The translations under genes and the position numbers were made by a program. A model generated the notes under the pieces. That model was not told where the DNA came from. It searched no databases and saw only the letters and a list, made by a program, of their open reading frames with translations. This document shows positions 1-42,175 of a DNA stretch of 42,175 nt, one piece after another. Where the stretch lies: IMG/VR virus record IMGVR_UViG_3300009537_000050, positions 1-42,175 of that record; one strand, 5' to 3'. Position 1 is the stretch's first letter. Every line of letters starts with the position of its first letter. This DNA is from a virus.

Positions 1-99
1 CGCCATGCACAGACGCGGACGATATCGGCACGGTTACCGGCCCAAACGTTAGCGGCAATGAACGCATCAGCAATCGAAGCCGCTTGCGCTCCGGTGATA
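1..99. repeat. 99-bp terminal direct repeat, identical to 42077..42175 (genome closure / terminal redundancy)
   Basis: Bases 1-99 read identically to 42077-42175. The repeat lies inside an ORF that is complete only when the ends are joined. Confidence 0.95.
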
Positions 100-218
100 G
101 ACACCCTGTTACCGCCAGTCTCGTAGACGTAATCGCCTGGCGCAGCTCCGGCGATAGCAGCTAGCGTCGAACCAAACGAGATACCAAGCGCGACAGAGAA
201 CCATTTAATAGCCTTCAT
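1..218 (-). CDS. 5' part of a 107-aa wrap-around ORF; small late protein with a signal-peptide-like N-terminus
   Basis: ATG at 218 with GGAG 8 nt upstream. The N-terminus MKAIKWFSVALGISFGSTLAAIAGA-AP looks like a Sec signal. The frame continues from base 1 into 42076 and stops at 41971-41973. Confidence 0.6.
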   Translation of the reverse strand, partial: MKAIKWFSVALGISFGSTLAAIAGAAPGDYVYETGGNRVSITGAQAASIADAFIAANVWAGNRADIVRVCAW

Positions 219-230
219 ATCAAAAACTCC

Positions 231-1379
231 TTACTGTGGTGTCACAACAGCGGTTTCGTTCAAGAACAGAGTGTAATGAATTTCGTGCGTAGTAGTGGTT
301 AGACTTGTGTCCGATGTAATCTTCAGATTCAAAACGTTGCTTCCGGCGTCGGCGCAGGTAAAGTCAACACTAAGTGTGCCGGCCGTAACCACTTGGGCGT
401 TGAAGCTTGCAGGTGTAGTTCCGATATCGCAGGTAATGGTCCCCGCCTTATTCGCCGCGACAAACGGAACCGTATTAGCTTCAACCTGCAGGTCCCCGCC
501 CGCGTCTGAAGCGTATATTGCATACTGAATGATGCCGGATACGTGGCTACCAGAAGCTACAGCCATTGTCGCAAAAGTCGTAGCAACGTTGTCTGGTAGA
601 CTTCCCTTGACTTGGTCGGCCAACCTAACGTAAGTCCCGTTGATGTGCATCCCACCTTCGAGCGGTGTGATTACCCCGTCTGTCTGGTCGTGGGTGAAAT
701 CTATACAATCTGTGGGGGATGAATCTGGGTCGTTCGAACAAAGTCGAATTGTCAGAGTCGGTGCAGGTGTACCGGTTCCGAATGTAGTATCTTCTTCAGT
801 TCCAAGAGGTGCGAACAAGATATAGTTCTGGCCTCGATTGTCGTTTGGGTCGACTGTGAATAACCAACCGACGTCGTCACGCGCTGAAATCTTACCTATA
901 GGCTGTGTCCAAGAACCTGAACGCGTCCATATCATGGAACGACCAGCGGCTTGACGGAGGACGTAGTTATCAACAGCTACCCAGAAGTTGGTTGCTGTAA
1001 GACCAGCGTCACCACTCGCGCTAATACAAACTTCATCTGTGGCACTAACATTTGTGTAGCAAGCACCAGAACTACCCACCTGGAGCTGTTGAGACGATGA
1101 CGTTATGCGGTTGTCTAGCATATCGATGTCGTCCCACATCTCTATATCTGCGCCGCTCGTAGACCCAAGAACATCAGTCCAGATTGAGCCTGCTGCAGAA
1201 GCAGTGAACGTCGACGTTGTAGTGGTAGGTCCAACGATTGTGCCACCACCAGAAGAGAAGAACTCTTGTGTCGGGTACACCTGCGCTAGTGCGGAGTACC
1301 CGGTAACACAAAGGAAGAAGGCAATGCCCAACAGCATCAGCCATTCGGCACGCGTAAACGGTTTACGTTGTTCTTTCAT
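231..1379 (-). CDS. Exported or membrane-anchored late protein, unknown function (382 aa)
   Basis: The ATG overlaps the upstream stop (TAATG). The N-terminus has a basic stretch, then WLMLLGIAFFLCVTGYSALA-QV (signal peptide or anchor). The rest is Thr/Ser/Gly-rich. No family recognised. Confidence 0.6.
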   Translation of the reverse strand: MKEQRKPFTRAEWLMLLGIAFFLCVTGYSALAQVYPTQEFFSSGGGTIVGPTTTTSTFTASAAGSIWTDVLGSTSGADIEMWDDIDMLDNRITSSSQQLQVGSSGACYTNVSATDEVCISASGDAGLTATNFWVAVDNYVLRQAAGRSMIWTRSGSWTQPIGKISARDDVGWLFTVDPNDNRGQNYILFAPLGTEEDTTFGTGTPAPTLTIRLCSNDPDSSPTDCIDFTHDQTDGVITPLEGGMHINGTYVRLADQVKGSLPDNVATTFATMAVASGSHVSGIIQYAIYASDAGGDLQVEANTVPFVAANKAGTITCDIGTTPASFNAQVVTAGTLSVDFTCADAGSNVLNLKITSDTSLTTTTHEIHYTLFLNETAVVTPQ

Positions 1380-12126: not shown

Positions 12127-13146
12127 CTAGCTAGCAACGCAATCGTCGACAAACGCACCGGCGTCAGCTGAGATAACCTTTACATCCCAGAAGGTCTCAA
12201 TCTCACGACGGGTTGTGGTCTTGGTCTCGATGTCAAACTTGCGGGTAACAACACCGTCAGAACCAACACCCTGCGGACCGGTCCACGCGAACGTATACGC
12301 TGCGGAAAGCTTGCGCTTACCGGGCGAAGGATTCACGTATCCGAGCCACATGTCAAGAGAGTTGACAATCTTTCCAAGAGATGCGGTCTGCCCCTCGTTC
12401 GCGGTGTTACGGAACGCACGAGCAACCAAATACCTCTCAACCCCGAAGAACGCTGCCATCTTCGCATTGACGTCGATGTTCTTCATCGTTGTTTGCTCAG
12501 TGTACTTGATAGCATCCCGAACAATCGCGTGGGTGAGCAGACGCTTGTGAACACTACGGCCGACGACCATCGTGTTGGGCAAACGACCAATCAAATCCTC
12601 GATTGCCTCTTTGAGGGTTTCGACGTCAGCCTGAGGAGTTGAACCAGACTCGTTCCACTGTTTGATTTCATTAGCACCAGGAACACCTGAAACACCGTCG
12701 TAATCAGTTGTCCAGGTAGCTGGCTGCATACAAACAGCTTGCCACGAGAAGTCCAGGAAGATACGTCCCTGGTTTGCTAGCCATTCAGCCCCCTCAGCAT
12801 CAGAGTTCAACGCCGGGTCTTCGTCAGCCAGGTCAGACCAGTCCTCATCGTGGTGCGTAGCGTACCGCTCGCACTTATACGAATCATTGGAATAGGTCCA
12901 ACCGCTTCCCTCTGATTCCGTCGACGGCGCACGTCGAGCCATCGACAAGGTGTTGTATTGACCTGGAGGAAGAATGAAATACTTCCCCTCCGATTGTTCC
13001 ACCTTGACGAACGGCGCCGCTTCAGTGCCGACAAAAGCGCTGGGTTCTTGAAGCGTAGCAACTGTGAGATTTTGGAGCGGCTTGCTGATGAAGCGTGTGC
13101 TCCGACTCGGCTGCGACTTCGAAACTGGAATTGCAAAAGTTCTCAT
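12127..13146 (-). CDS. Major capsid protein (HK97-fold class expected), 339 aa
   Basis: Position after the protease-scaffold and decoration genes (lambda-like order). Typical size, and followed by a hairpin. Confidence 0.75.
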   Translation of the reverse strand: MRTFAIPVSKSQPSRSTRFISKPLQNLTVATLQEPSAFVGTEAAPFVKVEQSEGKYFILPPGQYNTLSMARRAPSTESEGSGWTYSNDSYKCERYATHHDEDWSDLADEDPALNSDAEGAEWLANQGRIFLDFSWQAVCMQPATWTTDYDGVSGVPGANEIKQWNESGSTPQADVETLKEAIEDLIGRLPNTMVVGRSVHKRLLTHAIVRDAIKYTEQTTMKNIDVNAKMAAFFGVERYLVARAFRNTANEGQTASLGKIVNSLDMWLGYVNPSPGKRKLSAAYTFAWTGPQGVGSDGVVTRKFDIETKTTTRREIETFWDVKVISADAGAFVDDCVAS

Positions 13147-25372: not shown

Positions 25373-25374
25373 TA

Positions 25375-26834: not shown

Positions 26835-26845
26835 CGGAGTTCAAC

Positions 26846-27058
26846 GTGTCAGACAAGTGCAGCATAAAGCATTGTCGTCAACCAGTGTCTGTTCAGTACC
26901 TCGACGGGTATCTGTGCGAACGACACTGGACTGAGCGGTGCGAACGAGTAGAGAGTCAGTGGAGGATGTCGACATATCTGGGACAACGGCGGCGCTTCGA
27001 AGTGAGCGTTGTATTTGCTGAGGAGACAAAGAAATGGTTGGAAGAAAACAAACGGTGA
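26846..27058 (+). CDS. Hypothetical small Cys/His-rich protein (70 aa)
   Basis: GTG start with GGAG 6 nt upstream. Confidence 0.5.
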   Translation: MSDKCSIKHCRQPVSVQYLDGYLCERHWTERCERVESQWRMSTYLGQRRRFEVSVVFAEETKKWLEENKR

Positions 27059-27432: not shown

Positions 27433-27444
27433 GAGGAGCGGAAC

Positions 27445-28266
27445 ATGGCAACGCGTAAGGGTAAAGAGAACAAGACCACAGCACTAGCTAAGTGGGATGA
27501 GAAGCTAGCGCAACAAGCAGCGGCGGCTGCTGAACAAGAAGCGTCTACTGGAGGTGGACAATTCTTCTCACTACGTGGAGGGAAGCTTTCGCTGGACGAG
27601 GCGCCAATCCCAAACAATGAAATCGCGTGTATCATCGTGGACTCTATCCTTGAGAATACGCATTACGAGGATGAGTTCAATGCGGATGATGTTCAGTCTC
27701 CTTCCTGTTTTGCCTTCGGACGAAGTGAAGGTGAGATGTCTCCTCACGAAGACGCTCCAGCCCCCGTTGACGAAAGCTGCGCTGAGTGCCCGAATAACAA
27801 ATTTGGAAGCGCAGATAGGGGGCGTGGAAAAGCATGTCGCAATCGTCGTAGGCTCGCTCTTATCCCATGCGGCACGCTCAAACGAGATGGTTCCTTTGAT
27901 GCGTTCGACGCAGAAGAACTGAAGTCGCAAACGGTTGCGTACCTAGGACTCCCGCCAACGAGCATCAATTCATTCGGCGCATATGTGAAGAAGCTGGCGT
28001 CGGTCATCAAACGACCGCCGCATGCAGTCTTCACCAAGATTTCACTGGTTGATGATTCGAAGACAATGTTCAAGTTGGTCTTCGAAGACTTGGGACCTGT
28101 GCCAAACGCTGCGCTTCCTGTGGTGATGGAGCTACACGATGCGCAGCGTGACGTCATAGGATTCCCATACCAACAACGTGAGGAGGAGGTTCAACCGAAG
28201 AAGCGTGGGAAGAAGACGTCACGCCGAGGAAGCAAGAAGACGACCTCACGACGCAGCAAGTATTGA
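27445..28266 (+). CDS. Zinc-knuckle protein with a basic C-tail; possible ssDNA-binding or recombination accessory protein (273 aa)
   Basis: Contains CAECPNNKFGSADRGRGKACRNRRRL and a KKRGKKTSRRGSKKTTSRRSK tail. Lies just upstream of the polymerase. The function is inferred from context only. Confidence 0.35.
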   Translation: MATRKGKENKTTALAKWDEKLAQQAAAAAEQEASTGGGQFFSLRGGKLSLDEAPIPNNEIACIIVDSILENTHYEDEFNADDVQSPSCFAFGRSEGEMSPHEDAPAPVDESCAECPNNKFGSADRGRGKACRNRRRLALIPCGTLKRDGSFDAFDAEELKSQTVAYLGLPPTSINSFGAYVKKLASVIKRPPHAVFTKISLVDDSKTMFKLVFEDLGPVPNAALPVVMELHDAQRDVIGFPYQQREEEVQPKKRGKKTSRRGSKKTTSRRSKY

Positions 28267-28276
28267 GAGGATTCCT

Positions 28277-30205
28277 ATGAGAGATGACCCCTGCAGGACA
28301 GCCGCCGTCGTTGACTTCGAATCTTTACCTATTCGCCAACGACCCCTTTACCCCCCAAAGGCGGTCGGCGTGGCTACGTGGATTCCAGGACAACGGGCAA
28401 AATACCTTGCGTGGGGTCATCTCTCAGGGAATAATTCTACGTGGTGTGCTGCGCGTCAACACCTCGGTGAACTCATCGACAGCGGCCGACCACTCATCTT
28501 TCAGAACGCGAAGTTTGACCTCTCAATCATAGAGGAAGAGTTTCAGCTCAAGCTTCCAGGGTGGGAACGTATATACGACACGTTACCTCTTATGTTCATC
28601 GATGAACCACGCGCGCCCACGTTCTCACTAAAGCCATCTGGTGAACGGATACTAGGTCGAGAACCTGACGAACGAGACGCTTTGGTTGATTGGCTCGTAC
28701 AACATCAGCCAGTCCCAGACATCAAACTTTCCGACAAGCAGAAGGGAAAGCACTACGCTGGTGCATACGTGGCATGGGCGCCACCGCATATCAGCGGACC
28801 GTATGCGTGTGAGGATACGCTCCTTGCAAGAGATATCTTCAGAAAGGTTTTCAGCCGCCTCGACGAACGTTCTTTAGAAGCCTATACCAGGGAGCGAAGA
28901 CTCCTTCCGCATATCATGGAGGCAGAGCGAAGAGGTATCCGTGTTGATGTCAAAAGACTCACACGCGATATCGAACAGGGTGAGAAGACGCTTATACGCG
29001 TTGATGGTTGGCTGAGGCTAAGACTCAAATGTAAAGACCTCAACATTGATTCAAGTCGTGAACTAGCTGCCGCATTGTTATCCTCAGGCGCAGCGTCGCG
29101 TGAACTTCTTGGCATTACATCCAGCGGTGAAATACAAACGAACAAAGAAGCGCTTGCACGTGGCGTCATAGATAAGCAAGTCCACGCAACACTGCGTTAC
29201 CGTTCACAACTCAGGACGTGTCTTCGTACCTTCATGATGCCGTGGCTTGAGACGGCGCTCGACTCCAATGGGTTTATCTACACAACCTGGCACACGACGA
29301 GGACTGAACGCAAGGGTGGTGGAGTCGGCGCAAGAACAGGTAGGCTCACAAGCACACCGAACTTTCAGAATATACCTGTGAGGTACGACCCACTCTTCAA
29401 GTCAGAGGAGAAGGGTTTACCACCCACACCGATACAGCTTCCACAACTACCACGCGTGCGTCAGTACATCATTCCAACAGAACGCGGTTGGGTACTCTGT
29501 GACCGTGACTATTCACAGCAGGAACTCAGAATCTTAGGGCACTTTGAGGACGGAGTATTAAGAGACGCGTACATCAAAGACCCTTGGTTAGACGTTCACG
29601 ACCACGCGCAGAAGCTCATCAATGGGATGCTTGGTACTAACTACAAGCGGAAGCCCGTAAAGAATACAGGCTTTGGAATCATCTACGGGATGGGTTTAGG
29701 AAAGCTAGCAGAGCAAACCAACTCCACTGTCGAACAAGCACAAAAACTCCGTCGTGCATACCTTTCAATTTTTCCAGGACTCAGGAGCCTTGACGATGAC
29801 CTCAAACGGAGAGCGCGGCAAGATGAACCACTTCGAACTTGGGGAGGACGTCTATACCACTGTGAGCCACCACGGTGGGTCGATGGTCGTATGCGAGATT
29901 ACGGATACAAGATGCTCAATCTTCTTATCCAGGGAAGTGCAGCTGATTGTACCAAAGAGGCATTTATCAGATACTGTGAGCGGAAACCAAAACATCATCA
30001 TGCGCTTCTTACCGTGCATGATGAGACGCTAGTATCTGTCCCGCGCGAAGAGCGTAGGGAATGCATGGAACTTTTGAAGTCATGTATGGAAGACGTCGAC
30101 TTCGATGTTCCGATGTTGAGTGAAGGAACATGGTCATCAAAATCGTGGCACGAACTTCGTGATTATGATGTGAAAGGAAAGTTGAAATGCCGGTCCGACG
30201 CCTAA
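28277..30205 (+). CDS. Family A DNA polymerase with 3'-5' exonuclease domain (642 aa from the ATG)
   Basis: Exo motifs VDFES, NAKFDL, YACEDT. Pol motifs DYSQQELRIL (A), RKPVKNTGFGIIYGMG (B) and VHDE (C). The ATG at 28277 has GAGAGG upstream, whereas the ORF track start at 28178 overlaps the upstream gene. Confidence 0.92.
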   Translation: MRDDPCRTAAVVDFESLPIRQRPLYPPKAVGVATWIPGQRAKYLAWGHLSGNNSTWCAARQHLGELIDSGRPLIFQNAKFDLSIIEEEFQLKLPGWERIYDTLPLMFIDEPRAPTFSLKPSGERILGREPDERDALVDWLVQHQPVPDIKLSDKQKGKHYAGAYVAWAPPHISGPYACEDTLLARDIFRKVFSRLDERSLEAYTRERRLLPHIMEAERRGIRVDVKRLTRDIEQGEKTLIRVDGWLRLRLKCKDLNIDSSRELAAALLSSGAASRELLGITSSGEIQTNKEALARGVIDKQVHATLRYRSQLRTCLRTFMMPWLETALDSNGFIYTTWHTTRTERKGGGVGARTGRLTSTPNFQNIPVRYDPLFKSEEKGLPPTPIQLPQLPRVRQYIIPTERGWVLCDRDYSQQELRILGHFEDGVLRDAYIKDPWLDVHDHAQKLINGMLGTNYKRKPVKNTGFGIIYGMGLGKLAEQTNSTVEQAQKLRRAYLSIFPGLRSLDDDLKRRARQDEPLRTWGGRLYHCEPPRWVDGRMRDYGYKMLNLLIQGSAADCTKEAFIRYCERKPKHHHALLTVHDETLVSVPREERRECMELLKSCMEDVDFDVPMLSEGTWSSKSWHELRDYDVKGKLKCRSDA

Positions 30206-30885
30206 ACAAAATCTCAGCGTGGAGCTACTCTCGATTGACGACGTATGAGAAGTGTGCCTTCCGTGCGTTCTGCCTGTACGTTCTCAAGAAAAAAGAACCT
30301 CAGGCACCTGCGATGAAGCGCGGTAGTGATATCCACGAGCTAGCTGAGAACTATGTCAAAGCGTCTCGTGTACCGAGAAAAATTCCAGAAGCGTTGTGGC
30401 GCTTTGAGGATGAGTTCAAAGAACTTCGAAAGGCCTACCACCGAAGAAAAGGCAAGAACCACTTTGTAGAACTTGAGGCGCAGATTGCGGTCGACGACAA
30501 GTGGGGCTGCGTTGATTGGTTCGACGACTTCGCGTGGCTGCGCGCGAAGATTGACGTGCTTGAGGTGAACGGGGTATTTGCTGAAGTCAAAGACCACAAA
30601 ACAGGAAGGCAGCGTCCTGAGAACGTCGACCAGTTAGAGTTGTACGCTATTGCCATATTCTGCAAATACCCGTTTGTGGAAACCGTCAACGCAAGCTTCT
30701 GGTATTTGGACGAGGGTGTGATTGACGCGAAGAACTTTGCGCGTCATGAACTAGACAGTCTCAAAAAGAAATGGCTGAAGCGAATCAAACCCATGATGAA
30801 CGACACGACGTTCAAGCCTAAGCCATGTTACCTATGCAAGTGGTGTAAGTTCTCGAAGGAGGAAGGCGGACCGTGCAAATTTTAG
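30187..30885 (+). CDS. PD-(D/E)XK Cas4/RecB-like exonuclease with a Cys cluster
   Basis: N-terminal Cys (YEKCAFRAF), IDVLEV...EVKDHKTG (D..E.K), QLELYA, and C-terminal CYLCKWCKF...GGPC. Confidence 0.8.
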   Translation: MPVRRLNKISAWSYSRLTTYEKCAFRAFCLYVLKKKEPQAPAMKRGSDIHELAENYVKASRVPRKIPEALWRFEDEFKELRKAYHRRKGKNHFVELEAQIAVDDKWGCVDWFDDFAWLRAKIDVLEVNGVFAEVKDHKTGRQRPENVDQLELYAIAIFCKYPFVETVNASFWYLDEGVIDAKNFARHELDSLKKKWLKRIKPMMNDTTFKPKPCYLCKWCKFSKEEGGPCKF

Positions 30886-31178
30886 AATCAACGATTGAGC
30901 GAAAGTTCGTTGACCGCGTGAGGGAGGAGTTCAATATTGAGACACTAAAACTTGAACTTAGACACAACGCCGGCTGGCCTGACAGGTTGCTCCTCATCCC
31001 CGGAGGTCGTCCGCTATTCATAGAGTTCAAGAGACCTGGAGAGGACCTTGGAACACTGCAACGATATCGTCATGACGTACTTAGAGAGCTTGGGTATGAG
31101 GTTCGAACATTCGACCGTGTATCCTCAGCTATGCTCTACGTCAGACAAATCATGGCAACCGCACGCGTACCAACGTAA
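30873..31178 (+). CDS. VRR-NUC domain nuclease (101 aa)
   Basis: ERKFVDRV...GWPDRLLLIPGGRPLFIEFKRPGE...Q matches the VRR-NUC core (D..E.K). GTG start with GGAGGAAGG upstream. Confidence 0.75.
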   Translation: MQILESTIERKFVDRVREEFNIETLKLELRHNAGWPDRLLLIPGGRPLFIEFKRPGEDLGTLQRYRHDVLRELGYEVRTFDRVSSAMLYVRQIMATARVPT

Positions 31179-32547: not shown

Positions 32548-32599
32548 GGTCAGTTCATTTGCTATCCGGAGGGTATCTCTAACAGCTGAGGAGTTAGCT

Positions 32600-33385: not shown

Positions 33386-33411
33386 AAGTTCACAGGCTGG
33401 TATTAGAGAGT

Positions 33412-33446
33412 GACGGGCGGGGCTAACTACCTCGCCCGTCCTTTTG
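33412..33446 (+). terminator. Intrinsic terminator candidate separating the replication genes from the modification operon
   Basis: GACGGGCGGGG...CCTCGCCCGTC stem (one mismatch) followed by CTTTTG. A GAGGAG RBS for the next gene follows. Confidence 0.5.
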
Positions 33447-33460
33447 CTGAGGAGTAGAAA

Positions 33461-34345
33461 ATGAACAAAGCTGGAAAGTCCGTCGACACGACCCACCTAC
33501 CACTGGCAAAGCATACGTCCATCCGTGGTTACATCCACAGAGACTACCTCGCCCATTGTCTTCGCTATTCGCATGTAGCGAAGTTCATGAATCAACAACG
33601 TAGGTACCAACATTCACACCTACTCGACGTAGGTTGTGGAAGAGAGACTCCACTTGCTCGTCTCATGTATTCAATGAGGATGACGCATAAGACGGGAACC
33701 TATACGGGTGTGGATTATGGAAAAGTGGACTGGCCAGACTCGATGCCAGATAAGCCGAAGAACTTTAATATGAAGCTCATTGAGCGGACGGACTTCGTGG
33801 AGGCGAAACTGCCGCGAAAGAAGTTTAACGTTGGAGTCTGCTTCGAAGTCGTTGAACACGTCGAACCGTTCCACGCATATCAGATTCTCAAACGCCTACG
33901 CCAGTCACTGAGAAGTACAGGAACGGCGTTCATCTCCACGCCCGTATACGACCCTCGCGTCGGAGCTGCTGGGAACCACGTCAATGAGATGTCGTTCGAA
34001 GCGATGTATGCGATGCTCATCTTGGCGGGCTTTGCGGTCGTCGGTAAGTGGGGAACGTTCGCCTCACAGAGGGATTACAAAGATGAACTCAGTAGCTTTA
34101 CAGGTGTGCGTGGAGTCTTTGATGCGTTGAGCGCATACTACGATTCGAACACGCTTGCCTGTATCTTCGCCCCGCTGTTCCCTCAACAGTCACGTAATGT
34201 TCTGTGGCGCGTAAAGGCGATAGGCGATTGTGGAGATGTATTCCACGGTGAGGCTATTAGGAACCTTCGGCGGAAGGTTCATTCCAGTTCCACAAAGTGG
34301 ACCAAAGAATTCTCAAAAATCATTCGCGACGTTTCGTGTTCCTAA
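33461..34345 (+). CDS. Class I SAM-dependent methyltransferase, substrate unknown (294 aa)
   Basis: Motif I LLDVGCGRETP, post-I acidic YTGVDYG, and VCFEVVEHV. No DPPY or PC motif typical of DNA base MTases. Confidence 0.7.
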   Translation: MNKAGKSVDTTHLPLAKHTSIRGYIHRDYLAHCLRYSHVAKFMNQQRRYQHSHLLDVGCGRETPLARLMYSMRMTHKTGTYTGVDYGKVDWPDSMPDKPKNFNMKLIERTDFVEAKLPRKKFNVGVCFEVVEHVEPFHAYQILKRLRQSLRSTGTAFISTPVYDPRVGAAGNHVNEMSFEAMYAMLILAGFAVVGKWGTFASQRDYKDELSSFTGVRGVFDALSAYYDSNTLACIFAPLFPQQSRNVLWRVKAIGDCGDVFHGEAIRNLRRKVHSSSTKWTKEFSKIIRDVSCS

Positions 34346-34357
34346 AGGAGGACCAAC

Positions 34358-35422
34358 ATGTACGCTGTAGCTGGTGACGTATTCGCAGGACTTTTCGCCT
34401 ACGGAATCCGACGTGCTGGATTCAGAGTCGATACACATCTTGCCCATACGGATTATGGGATTGAGATGTACAAGGCTAACTTCAAATCCCACGACGTTCG
34501 GATTGGAAAGGAGAACTGGGACCTGTCAAAGCTTCGACGCAAGGAGCGTCCACATTTGTTCTTTACTAACCCACCATGTGCTCCGTGGTCGAACGCCGGT
34601 CACGGGTCGCGCTTCCGAAAAGGCGAGGCGAAGGACGATAGGCCTGAGTGGATTATCGACCTCATGAATGCTGCGTTTGAAATGCGTGCTGATACGTGGG
34701 TCTGGGAAAGCGTTACCGAGGCGTGGCGTCGTGGACAGGACTTCGTTCTTTCGCGCGCCGAGGAGTGTCTCAGTCACGGGTATAGCGTCACAGTTCTTCT
34801 CCAGAACAACCTCTACCTCGGCGCTCCGCAAAACCGTCGACGTATGTTGTTCATCGCCCACAGATATCCAATCGTATTCCCGCGGTTCAAGCTAAAGCAT
34901 CCAACGGTGCGCGAAGTTCTCAAGGGCGTAAGTCCAGGAAGCACTGTAGGGTGCGACATCTCTCCAAAAGAATGGTCTCTTTACTCAGCGGTAGGCAAAG
35001 AAGGCGGTCCGCTATCCGCTCATTACTCCAACAAGATGACGGACAAAGAACGTAAGCGGATTGATATTACACCTGGAATGAAACCGTCATTCTTGGCACG
35101 CCGTCTGGCTAACGATAAGACGTGCCCTGTGTTTATCAAGAATACGTTTACCTATCACCCAACGCTTCCACGGTATACGACGTGGAACGAAGGTCTTGCA
35201 CTTGCTGGCGCTCCGAAAACATGGAAGCGTACAGCGTCCAACCTCGTTGACAATACCCATCTCCTCGGCCGCGGAGTCCTTCCTGCCGTCGGCAAGTGGA
35301 TTGGGACGGCTGTCGCGACGGGTATCAAGACAGGTTCGCGGATACCAAAACGCGAACGATGCGTCATGCTCTGTGACTTCAGAAAGATGTCGAACATCAT
35401 CGAGGAAAGGATTGACCTATGA
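34358..35422 (+). CDS. DNA cytosine-C5-methyltransferase-like enzyme with a degenerate SAM loop (354 aa)
   Basis: Motif IV FTNPPCAPWSNAG, motif VI WESV (ENV-like), motif VIII QNRRRMLF, motif X GRGVLPAVGKWIG. Motif I reads DVFAGLFAYG in place of FxGxGG. AAGGAGG RBS. Confidence 0.7.
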   Translation: MYAVAGDVFAGLFAYGIRRAGFRVDTHLAHTDYGIEMYKANFKSHDVRIGKENWDLSKLRRKERPHLFFTNPPCAPWSNAGHGSRFRKGEAKDDRPEWIIDLMNAAFEMRADTWVWESVTEAWRRGQDFVLSRAEECLSHGYSVTVLLQNNLYLGAPQNRRRMLFIAHRYPIVFPRFKLKHPTVREVLKGVSPGSTVGCDISPKEWSLYSAVGKEGGPLSAHYSNKMTDKERKRIDITPGMKPSFLARRLANDKTCPVFIKNTFTYHPTLPRYTTWNEGLALAGAPKTWKRTASNLVDNTHLLGRGVLPAVGKWIGTAVATGIKTGSRIPKRERCVMLCDFRKMSNIIEERIDL

Positions 35423-35820
35423 GTTACCAAGACAAAGAGTGTCGAGACCTCCGTGCGTTCAACGCGCGTTTCGGCGTTGAGACGAGTAGGAAACCAACGT
35501 TACTTGTCGATGAGCGAAACAAGGAGAGAATGTATCTCATTGATGAGGAAGCGGATGAGTTGTTCAAGGCGTTTCAACAACGCGACGTTGTTGAAATCGC
35601 GGATGCCCTCATCGACCTCGCATACGTCATCAAAGGAACCGCTGTTATGATGGGTCTTCCGTGGGAAGAGTTGTGGACAGAGGTTCATCAAACAAATATG
35701 GCGAAGGTCCGAAAGACAACGGACCGCGCGAAGATTGATGTTCAGAAACCAGAAGGTTGGAAACCACCGGACGTCAGTGGAATTTTGAAGTCCGCGGGGT
35801 GGGAGGAAGACAATGGGTGA
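35419..35820 (+). CDS. MazG-like all-alpha nucleoside triphosphate pyrophosphohydrolase (133 aa)
   Basis: Metal-binding pattern IDEEADEL ... EIADALIDLAYV. ATGA coupling to the upstream gene. Confidence 0.7.
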   Translation: MSYQDKECRDLRAFNARFGVETSRKPTLLVDERNKERMYLIDEEADELFKAFQQRDVVEIADALIDLAYVIKGTAVMMGLPWEELWTEVHQTNMAKVRKTTDRAKIDVQKPEGWKPPDVSGILKSAGWEEDNG

Positions 35821-36784
35821 GTTCTGCAAAACGGTCACTATCTTTGAAGGTCCTGACGGAAGCGGTAAGACGACAGCAGCTGCGTACTACGCCGACGTTA
35901 TAGGCGCACGCTACGTTCATCTAGGTCCGTTTACCGGCGTCAACCGATGTCTTGCCCGTCTCTACATCGAGGCTATGCTTCCAGCGTTGTACGGGTATCA
36001 GGACGTGGTACTCGACCGTTCATGGTTGAGTGAGGGAATCTACGGAGCCGTGTATCGTGACGGCGCGGATAGGATTCGTGCGTGGCGTCGACGAATGTTG
36101 GAACGTGTAGCGATGAAGTGTGAAGCTCAGGTTGTCCTCTGCCTTCCCGGAATCAATAGATGCGTTTCAAACTTCAACGCGCGTAGAAACCTTGGTGGAG
36201 AATACCTGGATACTGAAGACCACCTTCGGGCTGTTTATCTTGGATACGAGGAGGCGCACGAATCAGGAGAATTTACTGACCTCCAAACGCACCTTTACGA
36301 TTACGAAACGAACTCAGAAACAGACCTCAAGGAGTTGCGCGGCACTCATCCTACGCACCCAGTGCGCGACGTTACGGGAGGAAACCTTGATGCTCCGTTC
36401 GTTATCGTTGGAGATAGCGTTGAAGCTACGCGAGAGCATGACTCACTGTTCAAAGCGCCGTTCGTATCTTTCGGCGGAAAGTGTAGCGCCGCTTGGATTA
36501 CCTCTCGCCTGCAAGCTGCGAAAATCAAGGAGCACGAACTTCTGTGGATTTCCACAGAGAACAACTGCCTCGAACACGTGGAAGAACTTTTGGATACAGC
36601 TCCGCGTGAACACGTCTTCGCACTTGGGCGGGACGCAGCGTTGCTGTTAGCTGATACTGAGTACCCTTTCATGATGGTTAACCACCCTCAACACGCCCGT
36701 AAATTCGGGATGAACAAGGGTTACAAACTCATCAAAGCAATTTTGAAAGTGCGTACGTTGAAAGCGCTAGGGGGTAATAGGTAA
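35813..36784 (+). CDS. Fusion of a thymidylate-kinase-like dNMP kinase with a UDG-fold domain (323 aa)
   Basis: N-terminal domain: IFEGPDGSGKTT P-loop and LDRSWLS (DR motif). C-terminal domain: APFVIVGDSVEATREHDSLFKAPFVSFGG and VNHPQHARKF are laid out like UDG family 4 motifs A (GEAPG...PFVG.AG) and B (HPS...), but with the catalytic motif altered. Confidence 0.6.
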   Translation: MGEFCKTVTIFEGPDGSGKTTAAAYYADVIGARYVHLGPFTGVNRCLARLYIEAMLPALYGYQDVVLDRSWLSEGIYGAVYRDGADRIRAWRRRMLERVAMKCEAQVVLCLPGINRCVSNFNARRNLGGEYLDTEDHLRAVYLGYEEAHESGEFTDLQTHLYDYETNSETDLKELRGTHPTHPVRDVTGGNLDAPFVIVGDSVEATREHDSLFKAPFVSFGGKCSAAWITSRLQAAKIKEHELLWISTENNCLEHVEELLDTAPREHVFALGRDAALLLADTEYPFMMVNHPQHARKFGMNKGYKLIKAILKVRTLKALGGNR

Positions 36785-37605
36785 TGAGAGCCCTGGTTGG
36801 AGACGAGGCCTGGAGAAACCAACTTGCACGTATCATAGAACATGGTCGCGAGACCTCTCCGCGCAGTCAGGATACGTTGGAGATTCTTCAAGATACGAAT
36901 ATCCACATCGATATGAATAGTCCGGTTGTAACGACACCGGATAGGAAACTCAACTATCGATTCATGTGCGCTGAAGCTCTGTGGATTTTGGGAGGAGATA
37001 ACAGACTGGAACCGTTGACACGTTTCATCAAACGGATGGCGAAGTTCTCTGACGACGGCGAGACGCTCGCGGGAGCGTACGGTCCGAAGATAATTCCACA
37101 ACTCAACTACGTCGTCAGTAAACTTTTAGAAGATAAGGACACGCGTCAAGCAGTCTTGACAATTTGGGAGAGAAACCCGCAACCGTCGAAAGACATTCCA
37201 TGTACTGTCTCGATGTCCTTCACGATACGTAATGGGCTCCTCAACCAACACGTCTATATGAGGTCCTCAGATACGTGGCTTGGAATTCCTTACGACATGT
37301 TTTCATTCGCCTGCGTAGGTTTACGCGTAGCGTGCGAATACAATGAACGTCGAATCTATGTCCAGGGTTATAGGCATGGAACGGTGCTTCCAGGAACGTT
37401 GACGATTTCTCCAACGTCTTCGCACCTCTATATGAAGGACTGGCAGAAAGCAAAAGACATTCTGTTCAAGCCCGTCCCGCAGGATATCGAACCCGTGCCA
37501 AACGAGATTATCAAGTATGGGCGGTTCGATTACATCCAACGGTCACTCCTAGCTGTACGCGAAGGGCAAAGACTTTCGCCAGACATGTGGAGGTGCGTAC
37601 CATGA
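36784..37605 (+). CDS. Thymidylate-synthase-family pyrimidine-C5 enzyme with Asp at the Asn177-equivalent position (dCMP hydroxymethylase/methylase candidate)
   Basis: CAEALWILGG (Glu58 region), IPCT (catalytic Cys), and YMRSSDTWLGIPYDMFSF aligned to ThyA YQRSCDVFLGLPFNIASY. Confidence 0.75.
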   Translation: MRALVGDEAWRNQLARIIEHGRETSPRSQDTLEILQDTNIHIDMNSPVVTTPDRKLNYRFMCAEALWILGGDNRLEPLTRFIKRMAKFSDDGETLAGAYGPKIIPQLNYVVSKLLEDKDTRQAVLTIWERNPQPSKDIPCTVSMSFTIRNGLLNQHVYMRSSDTWLGIPYDMFSFACVGLRVACEYNERRIYVQGYRHGTVLPGTLTISPTSSHLYMKDWQKAKDILFKPVPQDIEPVPNEIIKYGRFDYIQRSLLAVREGQRLSPDMWRCVP

Positions 37606-38156
37606 GAATGACGCGCGAAGAGTGGGCGCTCCGTATCGCTGAGGTTGTGGCGATGCGTGCTACGTGTGTGCGTCGACGGGTCGGTTGTGTTCTAACAGAC
37701 AAACATGGTCGAATCCTAGCGACGGGGTACAACGGGGTTGCCACAGGACTTCCACACTGCACTGAAGGACATCCCTGCAAAGGAGCTAACGCGAAGACGG
37801 GGGAGGACCTCGACAACTGTGAGGCTATCCATGCAGAACAGAACGCGCTGCTCCAATGTCAGGATACTCAGAGGATTCACACGTGTTACGTTACGGTATC
37901 TCCATGCATTACGTGTACCAAGCTATTGCTCAACACGTCATGTAGGCGTATCGTATTCATTGAGATGTACGGCGGAGAACCGTGTCCAAGGGAGCTTTGG
38001 AAAAGAAGCGACGACCGGAGACTTTGGTTCTCTGAGCGTTTGAGGACGGAGGTGCAACATGTTAAACAGGGCGGAGAAAGACCGCCCGCACCTTCCGACC
38101 ACGACGACAATCCTGAGATTCCAGATTACGGAAACCTCACGTACTGGCGTTGCTAA
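37602..38156 (+). CDS. dCMP deaminase (184 aa from the coupled ATG)
   Basis: HAEQNAL and PCITCTKLL zinc motifs in a ComEB/dCMP-deaminase layout. The ATG at 37602 overlaps the upstream stop (ATGA) and has GGAGGT 7 nt upstream. Confidence 0.85.
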   Translation: MRMTREEWALRIAEVVAMRATCVRRRVGCVLTDKHGRILATGYNGVATGLPHCTEGHPCKGANAKTGEDLDNCEAIHAEQNALLQCQDTQRIHTCYVTVSPCITCTKLLLNTSCRRIVFIEMYGGEPCPRELWKRSDDRRLWFSERLRTEVQHVKQGGERPPAPSDHDDNPEIPDYGNLTYWRC

Positions 38157-38431
38157 TGTCTCAACGCGGCGAAATCTCTCGCGCTGCGGAGCGAGAATTG
38201 AAACGGCTCTATAGAGGTCAGTCGCGTGTGGTTGAAGATATCAATTGGAATCTGATGGGTGCTTTGACACGACGCGAGTTTGTAACAGTGGATTACCGCT
38301 CGCGTCGTGTCACGCTCACCTACCTGGGCAAGACTGTAGCGCTAGGAATCATTTGTCGCGAAACCCACCAGACTGGATGTTGTCCTGCGAGGCTTAGACC
38401 TGTACGCAAGGAAACGCTCCCACGGGAATAG
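38156..38431 (+). CDS. Hypothetical small protein, possibly winged-helix-like (91 aa)
   Basis: TAATG coupling to the deaminase. The last about 30 codons overlap the 3' end of the convergent endolysin gene. Confidence 0.45.
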   Translation: MSQRGEISRAAERELKRLYRGQSRVVEDINWNLMGALTRREFVTVDYRSRRVTLTYLGKTVALGIICRETHQTGCCPARLRPVRKETLPRE

Positions 38432-39010
38432 CGGTCCAGGGTCCATCTTCCTACCGAACGGCATTCCTACCTCCTCGTGTCCTACGAGGTCGACCAGATA
38501 CCCTGCCTCAGAGAGCTTCGCTAGAAGCTCCTCCAGACCCGCTAGTTGCGCCTCTGGAAACGGCTCCCAGTAGCCTACGATACGACGCCCGTCATCGTAC
38601 TCTAGCGCCGCAGAAATAGGCCTAGGGCCGTCGTAGCGATATAACCGACCTGCTACCTCGTACCAGAACCCTCCGACGTCCCTAGTCAGCATTCCGAGGT
38701 TCGCTAGCTCGATACCGATAGAGAATCGGTTGACGTTCGAACAGGTCTCTCCGCGGTACGTCCATTCAGATGCTCCTGCGTGCCAAGCAGCTTTGTCGAG
38801 ACGTACGAGCTGCGCTTGTAGTCCATCACGGAACACGTAGAAGTGCGACGACCGTTTAGCCTTGGGCGTACAAAGCCAACCGGCGTTACGTCTCCCGTCA
38901 GAACCCGCGTCATAATGGATAACAGTTGTCTCAGGTTCGTACCCGTCACGACCGGAACAGTTCGGCGAATTACGGTGGACGAGTCCACCAATGAGTGGTT
39001 CTTTCACCAT
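38342..39010 (-). CDS. Endolysin, N-acetylmuramoyl-L-alanine amidase (Amidase_2/PGRP type)
   Basis: VIHYDAGS...HFYVFRDG...AWHAG...NRFSIGIELAN...HEEV...DPGPLFPW follows the T7-lysozyme-type pattern. The first ATG is at 39010; the ORF track uses TTG 39076. Confidence 0.85.
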   Translation of the reverse strand: MVKEPLIGGLVHRNSPNCSGRDGYEPETTVIHYDAGSDGRRNAGWLCTPKAKRSSHFYVFRDGLQAQLVRLDKAAWHAGASEWTYRGETCSNVNRFSIGIELANLGMLTRDVGGFWYEVAGRLYRYDGPRPISAALEYDDGRRIVGYWEPFPEAQLAGLEELLAKLSEAGYLVDLVGHEEVGMPFGRKMDPGPLFPWERFLAYRSKPRRTTSSLVGFATNDS

Positions 39011-39230
39011 CTGTATCTTACCCCCGCGACAGCCCCCGCGTTCCAATCTTTCCAGGTTGCATCGTACGATGTCCAAGCAGAACCCGTGATTGATAACGCA
39101 CGCGACACGCGCGCCTCGAGGTCCAACGACATTCTGGGTCCACGCTTATCGGCACCCGCAACAAAGTCTAAGGTCCCGGAACCCGGGACCAAAGACGTTT
39201 CTGCGTTGTCCAATTTTGCGTAGACCCCTT

Positions 39231-39539
39231 CTAAGGGTTTTCAGTAAAGCTCTCGATACGCACCGCTGGAGAGTTCTTCGCGGCTAGGGCAATAGCTTTA
39301 CCCTTGATATCGGCAACCTTAGTTACCGTACGGGAGGCGGTATAGCCGAGGAAGGACAAAATCGAAATGATACCTGCGACAACTTTGTCGTCGGCCTCTG
39401 TTTCAGTAATGCCGAGCAGTCCACTTGCAACGACCATAGCCAAGAGTTGTGCTAGAAGCGTCAACCAAAACTCAGTTGTTTTGTAACCGGGCTTCGGCTG
39501 TTCGGCTTTGAGCGTAACCATCTTTCCTTCTACTTCCAT
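39231..39539 (-). CDS. Holin candidate (102 aa, two predicted TM helices)
   Basis: The ATG at 39539 has AGGAGG 7 nt upstream. TEFWLTLLAQLLAMVVASGLLGI and VVAGIISILSFLGYTA are hydrophobic helices. Lies just upstream of the endolysin. Confidence 0.6.
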   Translation of the reverse strand: MEVEGKMVTLKAEQPKPGYKTTEFWLTLLAQLLAMVVASGLLGITETEADDKVVAGIISILSFLGYTASRTVTKVADIKGKAIALAAKNSPAVRIESFTENP

Positions 39540-39549
39540 GACCAACCTC

Positions 39550-39903
39550 CTAGGGCGTACCCTGTTTGACAGTACGCAACGTGCGCAACTGTACCTCATA
39601 AAGCTTTTTCATCTGTTCGCGGTCCTGTTCTCGCTGCTCCTTCTGTTCCTCTTGAACAGCCTTGATAGCTTCTTGGTTTGTCGTAATGGCTTGCATCATA
39701 TTCTTGTGCTGCTCTATCTCGACGGTCTTATGTGCTTCAAGCTTCGCACCCTCTTCGGCAACAGCCGTCTGAACGTCAGTCTTCGTTGCTAAGTCTTTCA
39801 ACGTCGGAAGACCTGTAAAGGCAGAGAACCCAAGCAACGTTGTTAACACAACAGAGATGAGCGCTAGAGCTTTCCAAAAACCTTCTTTCTTCGTGTTCGT
39901 CAT
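39550..39903 (-). CDS. N-terminally anchored coiled-coil protein (i-spanin-like), 117 aa
   Basis: The ATG at 39903 overlaps the upstream stop (ATGA). TM helix FWKALALISVVLTTLLGFSAF, then a charged coiled coil. Confidence 0.5.
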   Translation of the reverse strand: MTNTKKEGFWKALALISVVLTTLLGFSAFTGLPTLKDLATKTDVQTAVAEEGAKLEAHKTVEIEQHKNMMQAITTNQEAIKAVQEEQKEQREQDREQMKKLYEVQLRTLRTVKQGTP

Positions 39904-40592
39904 GCCGGTGCACTCTCCCATACCTGTACGTCTGAAGGCGCTGCGCGCGTTGCTATCTCATCACTCAGGTCTTTCAGGTCGTCTCCGTCAACTCCCCGGA
40001 TGTTGCTTTCTACAACACTCAATTTTCTATCGACGTCACCACCTTTGAACCGCGTAGCGTCGCTGAGGATTGCATCGCGGATAGCGTTAAGGAATGACGT
40101 AGCAGCAGCACCGGAAGTTAGGGCGTCAGTTGCGAACTTGGCTGAAGTGAGAACGTTGCTAGCAAGCTTCGCTGCGGTAATGAAATTATCAGCCACGACC
40201 GTCGACGTAATAGCATTCGCAGCGAACGAAGCAGCCGCGATAGCGCCGGCCGTAATCGAAGCAACGTTTACGTCTGGGGTAGCAGCTACGACAGTCACAA
40301 AAGTTCCAAACGCCTCTAGAGTGTTTGCGCTCTTGTACCTAGGTTGTATAGCGTCCCTGATTGAACCGTTGACAGCTGCTTGAGTCAGCTCTGCGTAGTA
40401 CCAACCATCGCCAAGTGTGTTTAACGTACCGATACCGGTAGACGTAAAGGCCCCGCCGTTTGTGGATATCTCCGGCTGGCCAGTGTCTTCGCCCGTCTCT
40501 GGTGTTTGACCGTCTGTAGCATCTACACAGAAGAAATAGACCCTACGAAGCGCAGCGGTTGATTCGTTAAGATTTATATCTCTCGTAGACAT
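39900..40592 (-). CDS. Fibre-like structural protein (230 aa)
   Basis: Ala/Thr-rich periodic segment (ITAGAIAAASFAANAITSTVVADNFITAAKLASNVLTSAKFATDALTS), as seen in fibre shafts. TAATG coupling. Confidence 0.45.
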   Translation of the reverse strand: MSTRDINLNESTAALRRVYFFCVDATDGQTPETGEDTGQPEISTNGGAFTSTGIGTLNTLGDGWYYAELTQAAVNGSIRDAIQPRYKSANTLEAFGTFVTVVAATPDVNVASITAGAIAAASFAANAITSTVVADNFITAAKLASNVLTSAKFATDALTSGAAATSFLNAIRDAILSDATRFKGGDVDRKLSVVESNIRGVDGDDLKDLSDEIATRAAPSDVQVWESAPA

Positions 40593-41971
40593 TAGAAGGC
40601 CCCTCTAACGATGTGGTTATAGTAGTAAGCCGCAACCCAATCGACTTCGACCGATGGGCGCAGACCTGCGTTTGGGTGGTCGATATTGTTGGTTACCCAG
40701 TTATTTGTGGGGGCCCATACACCGCGACCAACCCAACCATTAGTGTAAGCGGTCTGGGCACGTAAGGCATTAAGCATGGCAACCGGCAAGGAAAACGTCT
40801 GAAAGCCCGGGGCGGTCCATAGGGAAACGTCGATTACTAGGAACGCGGTTACGGCTCTATCAACTCCAGCGTGGTCCGCACCCACGTTGCTCCAGGTGGC
40901 GGATGCGTCGTGGTCTGTATGGGTCCAGTCGACGTTGTTTGTGGCTGCAACGCCTGCGCCCGTCCCCATGTTGTAGGACTTCAGTAGTTCGTGGCAGTTA
41001 ACCACGTCACCGGCGCTCGCCCAGCCGCTAGTGTCTCCGGCCCTAATAATCCAGCGACCGGCAGAAATTGACCCCTCGGGCAATACGCTAGGGTCCAACT
41101 TCCAAAGTGCTCGGCGTATATTCCCCGCTGTCGGGTTTACGTTCGAAGATGTCGCACCACCGTAGTTGAAGTGGTTGGCCGTTTGATAAATGGCTCCGTC
41201 CTCGTAGCCGCCACTGCTTTCGTCAATTATAGTCGTTGGGTCTAGAACCCCGTCCCCTACTGCGTTCGTTATGTCAGCTCGGTAGGTAAGGCGCTGCCAA
41301 CCCCCACCAACATCTGAAAGTACCGATTCACAAGGTAGGTTAGGTTCGAACTCTGAGCCGTTCGAATCCCAACCAACTAGGTTACGTGTGACGAACATCG
41401 AACGGTTATCGCGATTGCGTATCGTGTGGATTCCGTCGGACCTCTGTTCAATACGACAACCGGCTGAAGGTCTGGTCAAGAATGAACGTTCGAAGATGTT
41501 GCCTTCTTCAGCGCGGCGACCTGCGAAGTCCTGAATCTCTAGACTGTCTTTGTAGGTGTTACCACCATGGATGCTAGACCATTTCACACCATCCCAAAGT
41601 TCATCGTATTCGAGCGTAGTGCCGTTGACTTCAACATCTGTAGGGTTCGGGTTCTCTGCTACCATAACCCTTCGAACGCTGGGGTCGTTCGCAACTTGGA
41701 AAGCAACGGTAGCTCTTTTGCCAGCGTCTAGCGCGTCTCGTGCGAAGACTTGAATGGGTGACTTAGAAGACGAGTGGGTTAGCTGTCCTGAACCTTGGTA
41801 GCCTTGCCCGTTGTCTTCAACGAACCCCGGAATGGTCTCTTCATAGCCAGTTTCTGGGTCCGCGTTTGGTGGTAGGTAGTTGCTTCCGTTTCTAATAGAA
41901 CGTGTATAACCGCCCCCAGACATATTAGGTCTGTCGGTATAGTTCGCGCTGCGTCCAGGGGCGGCTGTCAT
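40592..41971 (-). CDS. Large late protein, unknown function; fibre or receptor-binding candidate (459 aa)
   Basis: Coupled within the late operon. Gly/Asn/Trp-rich, beta-type composition. No family recognised. Confidence 0.45.
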   Translation of the reverse strand: MTAAPGRSANYTDRPNMSGGGYTRSIRNGSNYLPPNADPETGYEETIPGFVEDNGQGYQGSGQLTHSSSKSPIQVFARDALDAGKRATVAFQVANDPSVRRVMVAENPNPTDVEVNGTTLEYDELWDGVKWSSIHGGNTYKDSLEIQDFAGRRAEEGNIFERSFLTRPSAGCRIEQRSDGIHTIRNRDNRSMFVTRNLVGWDSNGSEFEPNLPCESVLSDVGGGWQRLTYRADITNAVGDGVLDPTTIIDESSGGYEDGAIYQTANHFNYGGATSSNVNPTAGNIRRALWKLDPSVLPEGSISAGRWIIRAGDTSGWASAGDVVNCHELLKSYNMGTGAGVAATNNVDWTHTDHDASATWSNVGADHAGVDRAVTAFLVIDVSLWTAPGFQTFSLPVAMLNALRAQTAYTNGWVGRGVWAPTNNWVTNNIDHPNAGLRPSVEVDWVAAYYYNHIVRGAF

Positions 41972-42175
41972 TACTCTACCTGACCAACTATGTTCTTACC
42001 GACTAGAACCGCGTCGCCTGGCGTAGCCGTTGCGAGACCTAGGGCCATAGCGTGGAACTCCCCAGCACCGTCGCCACGCCATGCACAGACGCGGACGATA
42101 TCGGCACGGTTACCGGCCCAAACGTTAGCGGCAATGAACGCATCAGCAATCGAAGCCGCTTGCGCTCCGGTGATA
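41971..42175 (-). CDS. 3' part of the 107-aa wrap-around ORF (continues from 1..218)
   Basis: The frame is continuous across the junction 1/42076. The TAA at 41973-41971 overlaps the ATG of the next gene. Confidence 0.6.
   Translation of the reverse strand, partial: ITGAQAASIADAFIAANVWAGNRADIVRVCAWRGDGAGEFHAMALGLATATPGDAVLVGKNIVGQVE
42077..42175. repeat. Second copy of the 99-bp terminal direct repeat
   Basis: Exact match to bases 1-99. Confidence 0.95.

Follow-up and report, generated by a model that had tools for sequence, protein, structure and literature searches.

Avoidance of Type II restriction sites is widespread among non-temperate double-stranded DNA (dsDNA) phages, and GATC is under-represented in 46 of 46 phages whose hosts encode a GATC-specific Type IIM enzyme (PMC6286503). 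This short palindrome is the Type II site of MboI, DpnII and Sau3AI, and of DpnI when it is methylated (PMC7653180). The staphylococcal phages K and fRuSau02 are completely without it (PMC5618024). Here we describe the genome of an uncultured phage, IMG/VR record IMGVR_UViG_3300009537_000050 (positions 1 to 42,175; hereafter the window, by which we mean the whole 42,175-bp stretch that was analysed), in which GATC is absent from both strands. The genome also encodes a set of genes predicted to modify cytosine. We consider it likely that GATC was eliminated under the pressure of a host nuclease specific for this site.

The case shares features with several described systems and differs from each of them. 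As in the phages surveyed by Rusinov et al. in 2018, the depleted word is a Type II palindrome and the phage a dsDNA phage, apparently a non-temperate one; the depletion in that survey is typically partial, whereas in the window phage it is absolute (0 of ~150-180 sites) and concerns one motif only. Phages K and fRuSau02 show the same total loss of GATC in virulent dsDNA phages, where it has been read as an escape from restriction, and likewise do not depend on a methylase of their own. They are, however, large, low-GC, Twort-like myoviruses of a Gram-positive host for which the enzyme, Sau3AI, is known. The window phage is unrelated to them, has a GC content of 51.6%, and carries a cytosine module that would be expected to block enzymes of the Sau3AI type but not those of the MboI type. 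Phages T7 and phiX174 are also wanting in the GATC tetranucleotide (phiX174 has none; PMC5014478), again through synonymous choices, but the agent proposed there is methyl-directed mismatch repair in Dam+ hosts, and in the 5.4 kb of phiX174 few sites would be expected.

Two further groups are comparable in their gene content. The Axeltriavirus-type phages AXL3 and PW916 have a syntenic block of genes running from primase to deoxycytidine monophosphate (dCMP) deaminase, with a cytosine-type ThyA homologue, a kinase, a MazG-type enzyme and an S-adenosylmethionine (SAM)-dependent methyltransferase. Unlike the window phage they are rich in GATC, have 63% GC, carry other structural modules, encode ThyX and a ligase, and lack a C5-methyltransferase. 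T4 and Xp12 replace cytosine at the nucleotide level and, like the window phage, have a ThyA homologue with an Asp at the position discussed below together with a dCMP deaminase. The three differ in how GATC is handled: T4, whose DNA contains 5-hydroxymethylcytosine (5hmC), methylates the site, Xp12, with 5-methylcytosine (5mC), tolerates it, and the window phage, without a Dam methylase, has had its sites removed.

Complete absence of GATC

An exact search returned 0 GATC on both strands of the window. The base composition alone predicts 164 occurrences and a maximal-order Markov model 168 (z = -18.3), and 100 dinucleotide-preserving shuffles gave 183.6 ± 12.7, with a maximum of 215. We also used a synonymous-codon shuffle, in which codons are permuted inside each gene so that the proteins and the per-gene codon usage are unchanged. 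Across 150-300 such shuffles the expectation was 151.7-151.9 ± 9.0-9.1 (range 128-179, z = -16.9), and the Poisson probability of finding 0 GATC at a mean of 152 is ~1e-66. A preliminary description of the window, made from the letters of the sequence, had reported that GATC appeared to be wholly missing where about 160 sites would be expected, and that other 4-bp palindromes recur. The exact count and the four expectations (164, 168, 184 and 152) bear this out, and each of the remaining 15 palindromes occurs 44-309 times. Base composition and codon bias are rejected as causes by the Markov and codon-shuffle nulls.

The depletion stands alone among short words. The next most depleted palindromes relative to the codon-shuffle null are TTAA (44 vs 127), AATT (71 vs 127) and GGCC (69 vs 115); their depletion is partial and largely accounted for by lower-order composition (Markov z about -3). 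A survey of all 4-6-mers over the whole window found no 5-mer or 6-mer without GATC that is strongly avoided, and nothing comparable to GATC itself. The GANTC count is normal (176). Pressure on longer sites that contain the tetranucleotide (BamHI, BglII, PvuI and BclI) was rejected as an explanation, given that the bare 4-mer is missing in every flank, RGATCY included. The absence is not restricted to genes: the ~2.3 kb of non-coding DNA, in which ~9 GATC would be expected, contains 0, and the claim of the preliminary description that both coding arms and the intergenic DNA are affected holds throughout.

Codon choice around the missing site

The purge is executed through context-specific choices between synonymous codons. 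Before a codon that begins with C, Asp is encoded by GAC in 130 of 130 cases; elsewhere GAT is used 296 times and GAC 356 times (45% GAT). Ile following a codon that ends in G is never encoded by ATC (0/145), which elsewhere accounts for 305 of 495 Ile codons (62%). Likewise, Ser after an xGA codon is encoded by AGY in all 24 cases, against 583 TCN and 244 AGY elsewhere (70% TCN). The constituent trinucleotides are still frequent (GAT 552, ATC 612), and only the overlap of GAT with ATC is missing. These figures give substance to the earlier impression that codon choice has been shaped around GATC. Because the choice of codon is context-specific and all-or-none while GAT and ATC codons are common, selection acts on the DNA level, independently of protein sequence and of overall codon bias.

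Alignment of the window proteins to the DNA of relatives identified 115 positions at which a relative carries GATC and the amino acids are the same. At all 115 the window phage carries a synonymous alternative, with no deletion. Examples are CCG-ATC replaced by CCG-ATA and CGG-ATC replaced by AGA-ATC. The replacements are scattered over GACC, GATT, AATC, CATC, TATC, GATA and others. TATC and GATA are in excess under the codon-shuffle null, which is a by-product of GATC avoidance. GATT and AATC, the products expected from deamination, stand at 0.98 and 1.06 of expectation, and the decay of GAT5mC by deamination was rejected as the origin of the loss because neither is enriched.

Another word departs from expectation in the opposite direction. 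GAAC is strongly over-represented: the window has 338 copies where codon shuffles predict 241 (z = +9), double the number expected from base composition, and this excess is not accounted for by GATC avoidance. GTTC reaches 1.8 times its base-composition expectation.

GATC in related phages

Two genes served as markers for the comparison with relatives: the DNA polymerase for the AXL3-type replication module, and the major capsid protein for the structural module. AXL3, PW916, the metagenomic phage MW202621, a Desulfofustis phage and MW202777 contain 285-383 GATC each, at or above expectation; in AXL3 (327) and PW916 (331) this is twice the compositional expectation. The closest relatives of the polymerase, metagenomic sequences with 56-59% identity, have 85 GATC where 54 are expected and 28 where 29 are expected. 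The closest relatives of the capsid protein, with 57-63% identity, lie on GATC-rich contigs. The ~100 related loci, capsid relatives of 46-63% identity together with 80 terminase relatives from metagenomes, have a median ratio of observed to expected GATC of 1.9.

The relatives keep GATC, and the purge is therefore lineage-specific; it arose on the branch leading to the window phage. The idea of a trait of the whole group was rejected on the same grounds. A general property of cytosine-modifying phages was also rejected, since Xp12 and AXL3 keep the site. The lineage specificity points to pressure from a particular host or hosts.

Only three contigs, all short and carrying terminase relatives, are low in GATC: L058 (Ga0315903_10145993, 2180 bp) has 0 where 8 are expected, L018 has 1 against 5.5, and L095 has 3 against 15. 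These may represent independent GATC avoidance; the contigs are short and the terminase relationship is distant. One capsid relative (46% identity; L009/L010) encodes a Dam-type methylase (PF05869) just upstream of its portal gene (positions 4553-5059 in L009 and 2680-3186 in L010), and its GATC content is 1.4-1.5 times expectation. A methylase is thus employed in this relative as an alternative to the site loss of the window phage.

In most relatives examined, TTAA likewise ranks with the palindromes that are most depleted, and its depletion in the window is probably generic. TTAA and AATT consist of A and T only, which places them beyond the protection that cytosine modification could give, and they are the two sites at which AXL3 DNA is cut.

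A predicted cytosine-modification module

The right part of the plus-strand arm holds a predicted modification module of six genes (Table 1), four of which (those for the ThyA homologue, the kinase, the MazG-type enzyme and the dCMP deaminase) we interpret as a set for replacing deoxycytidine triphosphate (dCTP) by a C5-modified dCTP. The ThyA homologue is predicted to be of the cytosine type and not a true thymidylate synthase. Its best PDB match is the cytidine monophosphate (CMP) 5-hydroxymethylase MilA (E = 8.5e-20; thymidylate synthase, 1.6e-12), and its scores fall far short of every NCBIfam cutoff for thymidylate synthase. It retains the catalytic Cys, in 'PCT' where thymidylate synthase has 'PCH'. 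Where thymidylate synthase has the uracil-specifying Asn177, in 'GVPFNIASY', the homologue has an Asp, in 'GIPYDMFSF'; this Asp is invariant in the homologues of AXL3, PW916 and MW202621 and present in the Xp12 enzyme. The change Asn177Asp shifts thymidylate synthase towards dCMP, and T4 dCMP hydroxymethylase (gp42) has its Asp179 at the equivalent position.

The neighbouring genes could complete such a pathway. The putative kinase, which shares 39% identity with a protein of AXL3 annotated as 'thymidylate kinase' (gp29) and occupies the same place in a conserved gene order, may phosphorylate the modified deoxynucleoside monophosphate (dNMP). The MazG-type enzyme (43% identical to AXL3 gp30) may clear the canonical deoxynucleoside triphosphate from the pool, and the dCMP deaminase is 51% identical to AXL3 gp27. 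The SAM-dependent methyltransferase is 29-31% identical to its homologues in AXL3, PW916 and MW202621, and its match to UbiG is weak (32 bits). It is not a Dam-type enzyme, and its likeness to UbiG-type O-methyltransferases hints at a further derivatised 5-hydroxymethylcytosine.

The sixth gene encodes a homologue of C5-cytosine DNA methyltransferases. It keeps the PC, E(S)V and QxRxR motifs, with PCA instead of PCQ in motif IV. No counterpart was found in the relatives L001-L015, nor in AXL3, PW916 and MW202621. The gene is inserted into the module, and its product has no GATC substrate in its own genome.

Digestion experiments with other phages indicate what such a modification would and would not protect. 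AXL3 DNA resists 35 of 37 restriction enzymes, namely every one tested that has G/C in its site, and is cut only at the A/T-only sites of TasI and Tru1I (PMC7504290). MboI is one of the 12 out of 218 enzymes that fully digest the all-5mC DNA of Xp12, on which Sau3AI is blocked, and DpnI digests the 5hmC- and Dam-modified DNA of T4gt to completion (PMC7653180, supplement). T-even phages supplement hydroxymethylcytosine with Dam methylation of their own (PMC6449724). MboI and DpnI thus cut C5-substituted DNA, and cytosine modification therefore need not protect GATC. In the preliminary description it had been suggested that, if a host restriction system is responsible, whatever base modification the phage makes fails to protect this site; by analogy with the MboI digest of Xp12 and the DpnI digest of T4gt, this suggestion gains support.

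Search for a phage-encoded methylase or nuclease

Pfam, PHROGs, PADLOC and NCBIfam models were run on the genes of the plus-strand arm, and Pfam also on most of the large minus-strand open reading frames (ORFs). These searches gave no match to the Dam, D12 or N6_N4 families, and no ORF contains a (D/N/S)PP(Y/F/W/H) motif. They also gave no match to MutH/Sau3AI, DpnII/MboI or DpnI, nor to any PADLOC restriction-endonuclease model. The sole recognisable nuclease is a PD-(D/E)XK exonuclease resembling Cas4 and RecB, and it is conserved beside the polymerase gene in relatives that keep GATC. It is no candidate for a GATC-specific enzyme.

Several ORFans, small early ORFs included, are unique to the window phage among the relatives, as is the C5-methyltransferase homologue. 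The lineage-specific ORFs include those at 23243-23659 and 25625-26050. The largest ORFan, an early gene of 344-387 residues, has no match in Pfam, PHROGs, PADLOC, NCBIfam or PDB, and a search of 5.8 billion proteins returned only itself. A single-sequence AF2 model of its product was unusable, with a predicted local distance difference test score (pLDDT) of 37. PDB sequence searches with three ORFs that lack an assignment gave no match.

Explanations for the purge

The reading that we consider probable is that a host nuclease with GATC specificity imposed strong purifying selection, and that removal of the sites would leave it nothing to cut. Such a nuclease would probably be of Type II and resemble MboI or DpnII, cutting unmethylated GATC, and a complementary DpnI-like enzyme that cuts the N6-methyladenine form (G6mATC) may act in the same host population. 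Loss of the site would be the only counter-measure effective against both methylation polarities, and it would require no phage methylase. The cytosine-modification pathway would probably shield most sites that contain G or C. Enzymes of the MboI and DpnI types read the adenine and would tolerate a C5-substituted cytosine, so that GATC would stay exposed; the purge would close this gap in the sequence itself, where T4 closes the same gap with its own Dam. We infer a host restriction enzyme as the selecting agent because selection acts on the DNA level, because the purge is confined to one lineage, and because the window phage has no Dam-type methylase. The DNA would also be modified, in a way that fails to protect GATC. 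Among the three explanations offered in the preliminary description, a host restriction system is thus the best supported and avoidance of Dam, MutH or SeqA is possible, while a GATC-directed nuclease of the phage has gained no positive support.

Some observations weigh against a host nuclease acting on modified phage DNA. Two phages with a pathway of this type, Xp12 (211 sites in 50 kb) and AXL3, show no avoidance of GATC. The gap would therefore matter only with hosts that have such an enzyme, and the argument is circumstantial. A C5-methyltransferase gene inside the module would be odd if every cytosine were already C5-substituted, so that the modification may be partial or of another kind than assumed, and that the phage DNA is modified at all is a prediction from homology. 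An unrecognised phage factor may also hide among the several ORFans. Finally, the homology evidence points to no single host: searching the genomes of 185,579 species with the endolysin was uninformative, with no match above 36% identity and matches in Bacteroidota, Chloroflexota, Latescibacterota and Pseudomonadota alike. Cultured phages nearest to the window phage have their hosts among Xanthomonadales, Alphaproteobacteria and Desulfobacterota, its terminase most resembles those of Desulfofustis, Brevundimonas, Caulobacter and Roseobacter phages, and the phage homologues of the endolysin come almost all from phages of Alphaproteobacteria. The tail proteins at 40592-41971 and 231-1379 had no match in cultured phages.

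The same tetranucleotide could also be selected against by Dam-directed machinery of the host, if, in a Dam+/MutH+ host, fast replication left the phage DNA under-methylated and MutH, activated by MutS/MutL, nicked GATC on both strands and so broke the genome, or SeqA sequestered it; we regard this as unlikely. The scarcity of GATC in T7 is a classic observation, the GC content of 51.6% is compatible with hosts of the enterobacterial type, and one may speculate that an unusual base provokes mismatch recognition. In phiX174, which is devoid of GATC, the absence has been tied to escape from methyl-directed mismatch repair (PMC5014478). A genome-wide synonymous depletion would fit this mechanism, but it fits the avoidance of restriction equally well. 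Nothing links the window phage to a Dam+/MutH+ clade, its polymerase module being closest to phages of Xanthomonadales, and the relatives that share the modification module tolerate an excess of GATC. To our knowledge, Xanthomonadales, Alphaproteobacteria and Desulfobacterota are not Dam+/MutH+ clades. Where mismatch repair counter-selects GATC in large dsDNA coliphages, a few sites survive (about 6 in T7), and 0 of ~150 is a better fit to a cut that is lethal at each site. Still less probable, in our judgement, is a non-classical defence that reads GATC, such as Dnd-type phosphorothioation (GpsATC) or a modification-dependent nuclease that recognises modified C within GATC. Our data show that the 4-mer is lethal or strongly deleterious in all flanks without identifying what reads it, and GpsATC phosphorothioation is reported from some marine Gammaproteobacteria. 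Dnd systems modify a fraction of their sites, however, and are not known to have purged any motif entirely; the contexts in which known Type IV enzymes act are looser. No direct evidence favours such a defence, and the avoidance documented by Rusinov et al. concerns essentially orthodox Type II sites and the GATC of Type IIM enzymes (PMC6286503).

The phage might instead encode the GATC nuclease itself and use it to destroy host DNA, with its own site-free genome immune and the absence of the motif serving as a self-marker. In a variant of this explanation, a lineage-specific ORFan, for example the one at 23739-24902, would be a new GATC-directed nuclease, or an activator of a nuclease, that shreds the host chromosome. 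Among its relatives, the window phage alone shows the purge, and it alone carries a handful of genes; none of the ORFans has been assigned a fold. Yet no ORF matches a GATC-nuclease family or a PADLOC restriction-endonuclease model, the one nuclease found is an exonuclease conserved in GATC-rich relatives, and cytosine modification would be a simpler self-mark, as in T4; we give this explanation very little credence. In a milder and more general version, to which we give similarly little credence, cytosine-modifying phages would share a systematic 'GATC gap' that has to be closed either by a Dam methylase or by purging the site. There is next to no chance that the missing GATC is an artefact of assembly or trimming, or a passive mutational effect. 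The contig does derive from a metagenome assembly (Joint Genome Institute, JGI), but its reading frames are continuous with a coding density of ~92%, homologues align across the former sites through synonymous changes and not 4-bp deletions, and other JGI contigs, from related phages, have GATC in abundance. Passive decay is opposed by the spread of the replacements across many tetramers and by the absence of any enrichment in GATT and AATC. The intact frames and the synonymous replacements therefore mark the absence of GATC as selected. A host nuclease specific for GATC is the explanation that we favour.

Genome organisation and relatives

The window represents a complete genome of ~42,076 unique bp, circularly assembled or terminally redundant, because its ends carry an exact 99-bp repeat. 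It belongs to a virulent-looking tailed phage. The ORFs scanned include no integrase, and the window contains no tRNA genes. The genes are arranged in two arms (Table 1), of which the plus-strand arm also includes a DUF3854/DUF5906 primase and an SNF2 helicase.

Table 1. Coordinates of the features of IMG/VR record IMGVR_UViG_3300009537_000050
Feature	Position	Strand	Evidence or remarks
GATC-free whole genome	1..42175	both strands	both coding arms and intergenic DNA; exact search, four null models
Terminal direct repeat, left copy, 99 bp	1..99	+	identical to 42077..42175
Terminal direct repeat, right copy, 99 bp	42077..42175	+	identical to 1..99
Structural and lysis arm	231-20485 and 38342-41971	-	large terminase, portal, Mu F-like protein, XkdF-type protease, capsid, Amidase_2 endolysin
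Major capsid protein (E-type)	12127..13146	-	Pfam Phage_cap_E
Replication and nucleotide arm	20827-38156	+	primase to dCMP deaminase
ORFan early gene, 344-387 aa	23739..24902	+	largest ORFan
Family A DNA polymerase	28178..30205	+	Pfam DNA_pol_A 7.8e-53
PD-(D/E)XK Cas4/RecB-like exonuclease	30187..30885	+	Pfam PDDEXK_1 6.7e-21; PHROG exonuclease
Predicted modification module	33461-38156	+	SAM-methyltransferase, C5-methyltransferase homologue, MazG-type enzyme, kinase, ThyA homologue, dCMP deaminase
SAM-dependent methyltransferase, small-molecule/UbiG-like	33461..34345	+	Pfam Methyltransf_23/11; no (D/N/S)PP(Y/F/W/H)
C5-cytosine DNA methyltransferase homologue	34358..35422	+	Pfam DNA_methylase 4.6e-16; PADLOC MTase_II 3e-19; M.HaeIII 7.7e-5
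MazG/PRA-PH-type nucleotide pyrophosphohydrolase	35419..35820	+	Pfam PRA-PH 1.4e-15; PHROG 3e-26
P-loop dNMP (thymidylate-kinase-like) kinase	35813..36784	+	PHROG 761 thymidylate kinase E = 5e-14
ThyA-family pyrimidine C5-hydroxymethylase/methylase, predicted dCMP substrate	36784..37605	+	
dCMP deaminase	37587..38156	+	Pfam dCMP_cyt_deam_1 3.7e-19; PHROG 174 6.7e-40

The genome is mosaic, with the replication block and the structural genes having different relatives. The whole plus-strand block is syntenic with AXL3 (from Stenotrophomonas), PW916 (from Pseudoxanthomonas) and MW202621, at 29-51% amino acid identity, and the polymerase is 45.6% identical to those of AXL3 and PW916. For the head and tail genes the similarity is to uncultured phages in metagenomes of the groundwater and sediment type, the capsid protein reaching 63% identity. 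A megablast search of 25 kb of the window against 50,697 phage records gave no match and thus no near-identical genome, and scans of IMG/VR with the polymerase and the capsid protein found no close relative. The polymerase homology search reached a maximum of 59% identity, and a metagenome scan with the terminase returned mostly relatives of ~50% identity or less.

Two further proteins have unusual features. The Mu-type portal protein (15996-17873, minus strand) carries a C-terminal HTH_17 (excisionase/MerR-like) domain at residues 575-621, an unusual architecture for a portal, and the fusion also occurs in the relatives L006, L007 and L013. In the plus-strand arm, the product of the gene at 32450-33385 is rich in lysine, and close to its N-terminus KKVS is repeated in tandem (KKVSKKVSKKVSKKVSKK). 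The central part of this protein shares 43% identity with hypothetical proteins encoded at the equivalent place in the modules of AXL3, PW916 and MW202621. The gene probably starts downstream of 32450.

Implications

Avoidance of restriction sites is well known, and the window phage reveals no new kind of system; it is an unusually clean case in an uncultured lineage. Modestly new is the combination of the purge with a probable cytosine-modification pathway, for which GATC is a known blind spot. Base modification and site avoidance can thus complement one another, a point that is relevant to the engineering of restriction-proof therapeutic phages. Exhaustive digestion with MboI, DpnII, Sau3AI and DpnI should leave the DNA of the phage intact and could therefore serve to enrich it from environmental DNA. 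We predict that the host population carries a GATC system of the MboI/DpnII type, the DpnI type or both, and this prediction may aid host assignment in the source metagenome. If so, the specificity of one host nuclease could shape a whole phage genome, with ~150 synonymous sites fixed one way.

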